64,000 bases of DNA from the sequence record PQ516281, one strand, 5' to 3'. The stretch is from Escherichia phage vB_EQ1. Under the pieces are notes generated by a model. That model saw only the letters and a program-made list of their open reading frames with translations, had not been told where the DNA came from and did no database searches. Positions 26,585 through 28,098 of the stretch are shown here, one piece after another; position 1 is the first letter of the stretch, and each line of letters begins with the position of its first letter. Both the position numbers and the translations under genes were made by a program.

Positions 26585-27004
26585 TTATGCGAAAGCAGCT
26601 GGGCTATATTTTTTAATTTGGAATTCAGGAACTACCATGAACTGTCCAGCGAAAACGATGTTATAAAGCTTAACACCATCTTCTACCCAACGGTCGCTAA
26701 TAAATCCGGCGATTTGCTTAGTTTTCCACGGTGTTCCATCAGTTGCCGCAGCAATAGTGAATTCATGGTCTTTTTCAACAGAAACTGATCTGCATAGTCC
26801 CCATTTGAACGCTTTTTCTTCTGGTTCAATGAATTGGCTTTTAACGTAACCAATGTTACCATCGGCGTCACGAACTTTAACTTCGTTACGACCAAAAACC
26901 GGATCACTCACAGAAAGAACTTCAACCAACTTCCCGGCAACTTTAGAGCGAGAAGCAACAGATACATATACGTAATCACCTGTAGAGAGATTTACAATAT
27001 TCAT
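26585..27004 (-). CDS. Paralogue A of a tandem three-gene family (139 aa)
   Basis: Shares N-terminal ...SVASRSKVAGKLVEV... and C-terminal GFISDRWVEDGVKLYNIVFAGQFMVV with the next two genes. Confidence 0.6.
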   Translation of the reverse strand: MNIVNLSTGDYVYVSVASRSKVAGKLVEVLSVSDPVFGRNEVKVRDADGNIGYVKSQFIEPEEKAFKWGLCRSVSVEKDHEFTIAAATDGTPWKTKQIAGFISDRWVEDGVKLYNIVFAGQFMVVPEFQIKKYSPAAFA

Positions 27005-27013
27005 AATAATTCC

Positions 27014-27478
27014 TTAAGCTTTACGAGGAGACACATAGCGAGTGATTTCAGATTCTTTAACAACTCGGAAGTCACCTAAGAATACGATATTGTATAACTT
27101 TTCACCATCTTCAACCCATTGGTCACTAATGAAGCCACACATAATATCAGTTTTGTTTGGATAACCGTATTCATCGATGAAGTCAAATTCTTTATCAGTC
27201 TGGAATTCAACACCTTTACACAAGGCCCATTTGAACTGTGTAGTAGGCTCAACGATATCGCTTGAAGCAAAGTGGGCACTCACACGAGATTCCAGGAATT
27301 TAGGACTTACGTAAGCGTACTGAGTATCCTGACGTCCAAAGCTAGGAATGATTCGAACTTTAACTTCTTTAATACGTCCCATGCCATTTGTGCGAAGTCC
27401 GACAACTTCAACCAGACGACCTGCGGCTTTAGAACGGGATGCAGTTGATACACGCTTAATTTCACCAATAGTAATCAT
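27014..27478 (-). CDS. Paralogue B of tandem family (154 aa from ATG 27478; track ORF extends to 27541)
   Basis: MITIGEIKRVSTASRSKAAGRLVEV...GFISDQWVEDGEKLYNIVFLGDFRVV; promoter -10 at about 27509 places the longer start outside the transcript. Confidence 0.55.
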   Translation of the reverse strand: MITIGEIKRVSTASRSKAAGRLVEVVGLRTNGMGRIKEVKVRIIPSFGRQDTQYAYVSPKFLESRVSAHFASSDIVEPTTQFKWALCKGVEFQTDKEFDFIDEYGYPNKTDIMCGFISDQWVEDGEKLYNIVFLGDFRVVKESEITRYVSPRKA

Positions 27479-27502
27479 AATTTTTCTCTCTTTGTTTAAG
27501 TT

Positions 27503-27540
27503 GAATTCATTATACTCCATCCATCCTTGGATGTACAACA
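27503..27540 (-). promoter_or_regulatory. Early promoter for paralogue B
   Basis: Minus strand TTGTACAtccaaggatggatggagTATAAT. Confidence 0.45.
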
Positions 27541-28035
27541 TTAATTTAGAATATTAACCACAGCACTACGTGGAACTACACTAAAATCACCTGCATGAAC
27601 AACGTTCAGAAGTTCAACACCGTCTTCAATCCACTGATCAGTTACCCATCCACTCACTGGACCTGCGAACGGACGTCGAATTGAAACAGCTTTACACAAC
27701 AAATCAGTAGGCTCAATAGGCTTAATCAGAGTACCGTACATACAAGCGATATCCATATCAATACAGATGTCTTTAACGGGTTCTACTTCTTCAATCAACA
27801 GTTCAAAGTCGGTGCTTGGAAGGGCGGTAGTAGAAATTGTACCATATGAATTTTTAATTTCTAAGAATAACCAAGGGCCTTCAGCTTGTTTGATGAAGTT
27901 AACAATAGTGAAACTATTACCTTGAGTGGCACCTAAAATTTCACAAAACTTTTCATAAGCTCGCACTGAAGCACCGTACCAGTTAATTTGTTTTTCATCT
28001 TTCAGGATGTAAGTAGCCGTAGTATTGATATTCAT
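27541..28035 (-). CDS. Paralogue C of tandem family (164 aa from ATG 28035; track ORF extends to 28077)
   Basis: C-terminus GWVTDQWIEDGVELLNVVHAGDFSVV shares the family motif. Confidence 0.5.
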   Translation of the reverse strand: MNINTTATYILKDEKQINWYGASVRAYEKFCEILGATQGNSFTIVNFIKQAEGPWLFLEIKNSYGTISTTALPSTDFELLIEEVEPVKDICIDMDIACMYGTLIKPIEPTDLLCKAVSIRRPFAGPVSGWVTDQWIEDGVELLNVVHAGDFSVVPRSAVVNILN

Positions 28036-28062
28036 AATGTTTTCCAGTTTGGTTAAGATAGA

Positions 28063-28098
28063 AAGATTATACTCCAACCATCCTTGGTTGTAAACTGA
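28063..28098 (-). promoter_or_regulatory. Early promoter for paralogue C
   Basis: Minus strand GTTTACaaccaaggatggttggagTATAAT. Confidence 0.5.

Follow-up and report, generated by a model that had tools for sequence, protein, structure and literature searches.

From Escherichia phage vB_EQ1 (sequence record PQ516281) we analysed a stretch of 64,000 nucleotides, referred to below as the window, in which three consecutive genes of the minus strand, termed ORF C, ORF B and ORF A in the order of transcription, encode related small proteins. The three genes represent the motB cluster that is conserved in the early region of T-even phages, here in the Mosigvirus version with motB.1, motB and a second motB paralogue. 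The phage belongs to the genus Mosigvirus (RB69/PhAPEC2-like T-even phages): between 26000 and 28800 the window is 100% identical to Escherichia phage MRostami-2023e and 96–98% identical to PhAPEC2, moskry, O157 typing phages and many others. All genes from dda to goF lie on the minus strand and are transcribed in the order dda, dexA, ORF C, ORF B, ORF A, the motB.2-like ORF D, cef and goF. The genes concerned here are:

28788–30101, minus strand: dda
28101–28778, minus strand: dexA
27541–28035, minus strand: ORF C (motB.1), 164 aa, start ATG 28035
27014–27478, minus strand: ORF B (motB), 154 aa, start ATG 27478
26585–27004, minus strand: ORF A (second motB paralogue), 139 aa
26001–26525, minus strand: ORF D (motB.2-like)

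The arrangement with dda and dexA on one side and cef and goF on the other is common to the window, T4, RB69, PhAPEC2 and moskry, and ORF B and ORF A lie in the part of the early region bounded by dexA and cef, 3′ of a motB.1-type gene. A gene with the MotB.1-type C-terminal domain, followed immediately by motB, is present in T4, in RB69 and in 17 of the 17 IMG/VR loci that were retrieved. The plus-strand ORFs of the region have at most 81 aa and run antisense to well-supported genes, and an Rfam scan of 24000–31000 on both strands returned two sub-threshold chance matches only.

All three proteins pass the gathering score (25 bits) of the Pfam family PF17613 (motB), ORF B with 130.8 bits (E 5.7e-38), ORF A with 77.2 bits (E 1.7e-21) and ORF C with 36.0 bits (E 8.2e-09), the last over the C-terminal half of the model only. 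ORF B and ORF A match phrog_1671 (MotB-like transcriptional regulator; E 4e-64 and 1.3e-51, respectively), while ORF C matches phrog_2333 (E 1.9e-83), with a secondary match of its C-terminus to phrog_1671. In pairwise BLASTP, ORF A and ORF B share 43% identity over 148 aa (E 2e-31), and the similarity of ORF C to ORF A (E 1e-10) and to ORF B (E 2e-9) is confined to the C-terminus. Against T4, ORF B aligns over its full length with MotB (47% identity, E 3.6e-42), and the alignment of ORF C with MotB.1 (38% identity, E 2.6e-27) covers the N-terminal domain and reaches into the first part of the C-terminal domain. Judged from these alignments, T4 MotB has its orthologue in ORF B, which corresponds to it in position too, and T4 MotB.1 has its orthologue in ORF C. 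ORF A shows 38.5% identity to T4 MotB and has no counterpart of its own in T4; among 761 phage records with a MotB-family gene, 207 contain an orthologue of ORF A (at least 80% identity). The counterpart of T4 MotB.2 is ORF D, which was rejected as a fourth paralogue despite the name motB.2, as it shows no similarity to ORF A, ORF B or ORF C (BLASTP, E > 0.2).

A reading of this DNA from the letters alone (the sequence-only reading) had described three consecutive homologous ORFs in tandem, and the matches to PF17613 together with the pairwise E values of 2e-31 to 2e-9 bear this out. Its proposal of a tandem triplication with divergence holds insofar as the genes are old tandem paralogues; they are not unrecognised, being motB.1, motB and a known second copy. 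The observation is therefore confirmed but ordinary: the cluster of motB.1, motB and a second motB has already been described, the genes carry the annotation MotB-like in many records, and the family, the paralogy of MotB and MotB.1 and the extra copy of RB69 type are already known from Pfam, PHROGs and the literature.

The proteins are divided as follows:

27781–28035, minus strand: ORF C, residues 1–85, N-terminal alpha+beta barrel
27718–27780, minus strand: ORF C, residues 86–106, disordered linker with the motif DMDIACMYGTLIKP
27544–27717, minus strand: ORF C, residues 107–164, shared C-terminal domain
27293–27478, minus strand: ORF B, residues 1–62, KOW/SH3-like N-terminal domain, pI 11.0
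27242–27292, minus strand: ORF B, residues 63–79, variable disordered linker
27017–27241, minus strand: ORF B, residues 80–154, shared C-terminal domain, pI 4.7
minus strand: ORF A, residues 1–60, N-terminal domain, non-basic, pI 6.2
26588–26818, minus strand: ORF A, residues 63–139, C-terminal domain

AF2 models reached a pLDDT of 82 for ORF B and of 78 for ORF C, with values below 50 in the linker of the latter. ORF A follows the two-domain plan of ORF B without a linker. The motif SRSK-AG-LVEV and the KOW-like N-terminal domain, which together with the C-terminal domain define MotB proper ('Category 1'), are found in ORF A and ORF B and not in ORF C, whose N-terminal domain is unrelated to theirs; the sequence-only reading had likewise seen the segment ASRSK.AG.LVEV only in the first two ORFs by coordinate, ORF A and ORF B. 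The computed isoelectric points of the whole proteins are 8.5 for ORF B, 6.6 for ORF A and 4.5 for ORF C, which is acidic.

Although predicted to be disordered, the linker motif of ORF C ([IF]D[MF]D[IV]A[CS]MYGTL[IV]KP) is conserved. The same motif precedes the N-terminal domain in other family members of about 160–250 aa, standing at the very N-terminus in some and after an N-terminal extension in the longest. It has the appearance of a short linear motif that can change its place.

Starts, promoters and transcription units

The three genes are organised in two predicted transcription units, motB.1 alone and motB together with ORF A, since promoters precede ORF C and ORF B and none precedes ORF A. 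The features are:

28066–28094, minus strand: ORF C promoter, early-type sigma-70, TTTACA-17-TATAAT, with a preceding G that gives GTTTAC, 11/12 matches, the best in 5 kb
27509–27537, minus strand: promoter of the ORF B–ORF A unit, early-type, TGTACA-17-TATAAT, 10/12 matches, the second of the two best in 5 kb

Both hexamers of the ORF C promoter are identical in 11 related loci (a 12th lacks the region), where a spacer substitution in one locus is the sole difference, and transcription is predicted to start near 28059, about 24 nt 5′ of ATG 28035. The ORF B promoter sits in the gap of 62 nt that separates the stop of ORF C from ATG 27478 and is kept in 13 loci, with TATAAT or TATAGT as −10 hexamer. 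The two promoters have a core of 26 nt in common, and both carry the GAGTATAAT signature of the T4 motB promoter. Matches to the sigma-70 consensus do not occur above chance, neither locally (15 against 15.0 expected) nor over the window (at least 10/12 matches; 41 against 35.7 +/- 6.1), and the case for the promoters therefore rests on their position, orientation and conservation and on their resemblance to the early promoter of T4 motB. The sequence-only reading, which had placed promoters before the second and third genes by coordinate, ORF B and ORF C, was right on this point.

Longer versions of two of the ORFs were rejected. The TTG start at 28077 (178 aa), which the sequence-only reading had taken as the end of the cluster, and an ATG start at 27541 (175 aa) are artefacts, because the extensions translate the promoters ('MEYN' reads GGAGTATAAT), because the starts at ATG 28035 and ATG 27478 match the N-termini of T4 MotB.1 and MotB and because related phages carry indels of 2 nt and 5 nt between 27541 and 27478.

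ORF A starts 9 nt past the stop codon of ORF B, and the junction GCTTAAGGAATTATTATG (GCT-TAA-GGAATTATT-ATG) is invariant in 13 of 13 loci; a gap of 9 nt is also found in the Tequatrovirus RB3. The Shine-Dalgarno sequence AAGGA of ORF A overlaps the ORF B stop codon, and ORF A is probably translationally coupled to ORF B.

Elsewhere in the window, a promoter at 16551–16579 on the minus strand, TGTACAAACTCTTGAGAGCAGAGTATAAT, is nearly identical to the early promoter of T4 motB, GTTTACAAACTCTTGGGACCAGAGTATAAT, and a similar copy lies at 61441–61469. Early-promoter cassettes seem to be shared between loci.

The cluster's downstream boundary is marked by a further element:

26530–26579, minus strand: intergenic hairpin that separates ORF A from the motB.2-like gene and includes the promoter-like sequence TTTACT-16-TATTAT

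The hairpin (-24.6 kcal/mol, z -6.1) and its promoter match (9/12) are kept in 13 loci. Its 3′ arm contains the Shine-Dalgarno sequence of the motB.2-like gene (GAGGAG), and the promoter-like element lies in the 5′ arm and the loop. Read-through transcripts would mask the ribosome-binding site of the motB.2-like gene, while transcripts begun within the hairpin would not. The T4 motB promoter is also embedded in an inverted repeat (GGGACC...GGTCCC). In Mosigviruses motB.2 follows ORF A, whereas T4 (locus L003, 3162–3662), RB3 and the majority of the other loci with this gene have it upstream, flanked by dexA and motB.1; in loci L007, L009 and L010 the gene went undetected. This shift of position is a local rearrangement.

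The shared C-terminal domain and constraint on the copies

Profile–profile comparison (hhalign) of 36 MotB.1-type with 36 MotB-type sequences aligned the C-termini over 52 columns with a probability of 98.9% (E 1.3e-17), in agreement with the C-terminal segment which the sequence-only reading had noticed in all three ORFs. The shared region is a complete domain, which measures about 57 aa in proteins of the MotB.1 type and about 75 aa in those of the MotB type, and the similarity is hence not confined to a patch of low complexity. The additional length of the MotB type stems from an insertion of about 18 residues in the domain alignment, probably a hairpin extension. A core G-[WFY]-[IV]-[TS]-D-Q/R-W-[IV]-E-x-G-x-x-L-x-N-x-V is present in all three proteins of the window and in 13 aligned relatives, and within it D-Q-W-x-E-D/N-G-x-E/K-L is invariant. 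At least four different N-terminal types are joined to this domain, and its MotB.1-type form keeps 72–88% identity in loci where the identity of Dda is 56–59%.

An exhaustive profile search of 1.84 billion representatives placed the domain in about 26 clusters, always at the C-terminus and in small proteins, and revealed no members beyond small T-even-type proteins. A few long matches with several stretches (proteins of about 530–930 aa, stretches of 20 residues) were set aside as apparent repeat artefacts. The fold resembles SH3-like small beta-barrels (Tudor, PWWP, chromo, KOW), a likeness in fold only, as no sequence relationship to these domains is detectable.

Patterson-West et al. 2021 (PMC7827196) allow an OB-fold reading of the C-terminal domain, by which the domain itself would bind nucleic acid and let the three proteins coat DNA or RNA, with contacts to proteins contributed by the N-terminal domains. 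We regard this as unlikely. The C-terminal domain is acidic in ORF B and ORF C (pI 4.7) and has the invariant core given above, while the basic charge of ORF B resides in the N-terminal domain and ORF C is acidic as a whole; moreover, a PDB sequence search with the profile of the C-terminal domain gave no match even at E 10.

Selection on the copies was assessed by the method of Nei and Gojobori. Synonymous sites are saturated between the paralogues (pS 0.73–0.86, dS undefined or above 2.8), so that a comparison of dN/dS among the three, as suggested by the sequence-only reading, was carried out but is uninformative, and orthologues from 11–13 Mosigvirus loci were used instead. The values of dN/dS are:

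dda: 0.025
dexA: 0.026
ORF C: 0.087
ORF B: 0.233
ORF A: 0.116
ORF D: 0.109

The shared C-terminal domain is the most constrained part of the proteins, with dN/dS of 0.05 in ORF C, 0.15 in ORF B and 0.00 in ORF A, while the highest values of any domain, 0.21 for the N-terminal domain and 0.28 for the linker of ORF B, do not come near 1. Given the saturation between paralogues the duplications are old, and since each copy is held by purifying selection, the data favour copies that have become sub-functionalised over an arms-race array.

Within its neighbourhood ORF B stands out, with 79–98% nucleotide identity and indels compared to 96–99% for its neighbours. Having the highest dN/dS, a mosaic N-terminal domain and linker and, in one locus, a T4-like N-terminal domain, and belonging to a region that is dispensable in T4, it could be taken to favour an anti-defence or host-range effector array under diversifying selection, whose tandem copies track variable host targets. 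We consider such an array very unlikely. Values of dN/dS stay far below 1 in each gene and domain, which lends no support to the diversifying selection proposed by the sequence-only reading, the shared domain is nearly invariant and the paralogues are ancient; the phenotype published for MotB relates to H-NS and the nucleoid and not to a defence system. For an anti-defence role no evidence was found, and PADLOC gave no match to its defence models, a library which covers defence systems and not anti-defence genes. The dS of ORF B is itself elevated (0.31–0.76, with maxima of 0.65–0.76), which together with the linker indels and the T4-like N-terminal domain in one locus indicates allele exchange by recombination and not positive selection as the origin of its variability. 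Within the linker, indels of 3–11 codons distinguish loci L004, L026, L025 and L006, including a repeat-like expansion FASSEEVAPAHFASNDIV, and it is in L006 that the N-terminal domain resembles that of T4 MotB more than that of the window's protein.

Alternatively, the copies might be redundant and kept solely for the dosage of a nucleoid-coating protein, given that ORF A and ORF B are co-transcribed and share the same two-domain plan. This appears highly improbable to us, since the two proteins are only 43% identical and differ in the pI of their N-terminal domains (6.2 against 11.0), since the N-terminal domain of ORF C is unrelated and since the paralogue types are separately conserved across genera: RB3, a Tequatrovirus with T4-like gene order, carries all three, and the orthologues of ORF A are 89–100% identical across about 200 phage records.

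Reference sequences of motB.1 in T4 and RB69

T4 MotB (NP_049626; PF17613; PHROG 1671) resembles ORF B in having an early promoter directly 5′, a KOW-like domain with SRSKAAG.LVEV, a linker, the C-terminal domain and a basic charge overall. The architecture of ORF A is alike, but it lacks the linker and its N-terminal domain is non-basic; in the window this probably coupled second copy trails ORF B, whereas it is absent from T4. T4 MotB.1 (NP_049627; PHROG 2333; 'Category 2' of Patterson-West et al. 2021) resembles ORF C in being encoded immediately 5′ of motB and in the C-terminal core PTDLLCKAV.IRRPF...GWVTDQWIEDGVELLNVVHAG, which both share. ORF C differs by the additional linker of about 20 aa with its conserved motif, which is missing from the T4-type MotB.1 of 143 aa. 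The gene order in T4 is dexA, motB.2, motB.1, motB, cef, with motB.1 following motB.2 at a gap of 10 nt, while in the window motB.1 comes directly after dexA and has its own promoter.

The cluster of RB69 (RB69p010, p011, p012 and p013), which is from the same genus, has the same order as the window, dexA, motB.1, motB, motB-like, motB.2 and cef, and its proteins are 87–100% identical. Its reference motB.1, however, is split, while that of the window is intact. Two insertions of a single T in NC_004928 (locus L027, 3377–3560), CCGTTTCGC versus CCGTTCGC and GGTTGTT versus GGTGTT, divide the gene into an ORF of 132 aa and the 29-aa RB69p012, the 'Category 3 peptide' of Patterson-West et al. 2021; all other Mosigvirus loci examined have an intact motB.1 of 164–165 aa. 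The T4 reference NC_000866.4 (locus L003) contains an extra G in motB.1 at 2722–2893, equivalent to 27544–27660 of the window. Reference MotB.1 of T4, with 119 aa, is thereby truncated by a frameshift and ends in ...WVTDQWIGRWR*, and the +1 frame holds the remainder of the conserved domain (EDGVELLNVVHAGEYSVVPRSAVVAILN*) intact. Thirteen other T4 or near-identical T4-type records (ten of T4, plus T4T, RB55 and RB59) are shorter by 1 nt over this segment, and the resequenced T4 genome MT984581 encodes an intact MotB.1 of 143 aa. Going by the records compared, motB.1 is mis-annotated as truncated in the reference genomes of both T4 and RB69.

We point out that this may have affected published expression experiments based on the reference sequence. 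Kim et al. 2025 (PMC12152347) used the coordinates of NC_000866.4 for T4 recombination (amber) constructs, obtained their genes for expression through a gene-synthesis/cloning service and described a monomer of 13.8 kDa; the protein which they assayed may have been missing most of the C-terminal domain.

Proposed function of the cluster

Patterson-West et al. 2021 (PMC7827196) reported that MotB and MotB.1 have a conserved C-terminal domain in common and differ in their N-terminal domains, that a duplication probably produced one gene from the other and that in RB69 motB is present twice, next to one motB.1 gene and a peptide of 29 aa. T4 MotB is an early protein, toxic to E. coli, which binds DNA non-specifically; H-NS and StpA co-purify with it, it dominates or alters the footprint of H-NS on proV, it raises the expression of 75 host genes, of which about a third belong to the H-NS regulon, and it doubles the burst size (PMC6070864, PMC7827196). 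To the N-terminal domain of MotB.1, Kim et al. 2025 assigned an LSm-like fold, for which a bent antiparallel sheet of five strands is expected.

In view of the DNA binding of T4 MotB and of its displacing or altering H-NS, the function of the cluster is most likely an early takeover of the host nucleoid, and the host-takeover role put forward by the sequence-only reading is in line with this published behaviour. We propose a model in which host sigma-70 RNA polymerase would transcribe all three genes right after infection from the two early promoters, and in which each protein would have a small beta-barrel at the N-terminus, joined by a flexible linker to the common C-terminal beta-barrel of about 57–75 aa (PF17613). 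By orthology to T4 MotB, ORF B would bind DNA tightly and without sequence specificity, override or alter the binding of H-NS, de-repress host genes silenced by H-NS and modestly raise the burst size. DNA binding would reside mainly in its very basic KOW-like N-terminal domain (pI 11), while the shared acidic SH3/Tudor-like C-terminal domain may serve as a common docking module, whose partner would be a protein of the host nucleoid or of host transcription, or else the paralogues. In this way the module would bring three N-terminal domains, a basic KOW, a non-basic KOW and a putative LSm-like domain, to one site.

Three points weigh against this model. The promoters are consensus matches with conservation, and their starts are predicted; biochemistry is known for T4 MotB only and is transferred to the Mosigvirus copies by orthology; and deletion of T4 motB.1 caused no growth phenotype, its N-terminal domain being proposed to be RNA-related (Kim et al. 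2025), and on this last ground a common pathway for the three proteins is not established. Taken as a whole, the explanation by a motB cluster with two early units, nucleoid takeover, a docking module and sub-functionalised copies nevertheless appears probable to us. A more specific version is speculative and has a rather low likelihood. By this version the C-terminal barrel would not bind nucleic acid but would dock onto one host target (H-NS/StpA, RNA polymerase) or hetero-oligomerise the paralogues, resulting in a modular nucleoid-takeover set in which ORF B supplies a DNA-coating KOW domain, ORF A a non-basic KOW modulator held in fixed ratio by translational coupling and ORF C an LSm-like, possibly RNA-binding domain.

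For the motB family, these results suggest a testable division of labour, in which the basic N-terminal domain would bind DNA and the acidic shared C-terminal domain would dock. The three copies should consequently be studied as distinct functions and not as an arms-race array.

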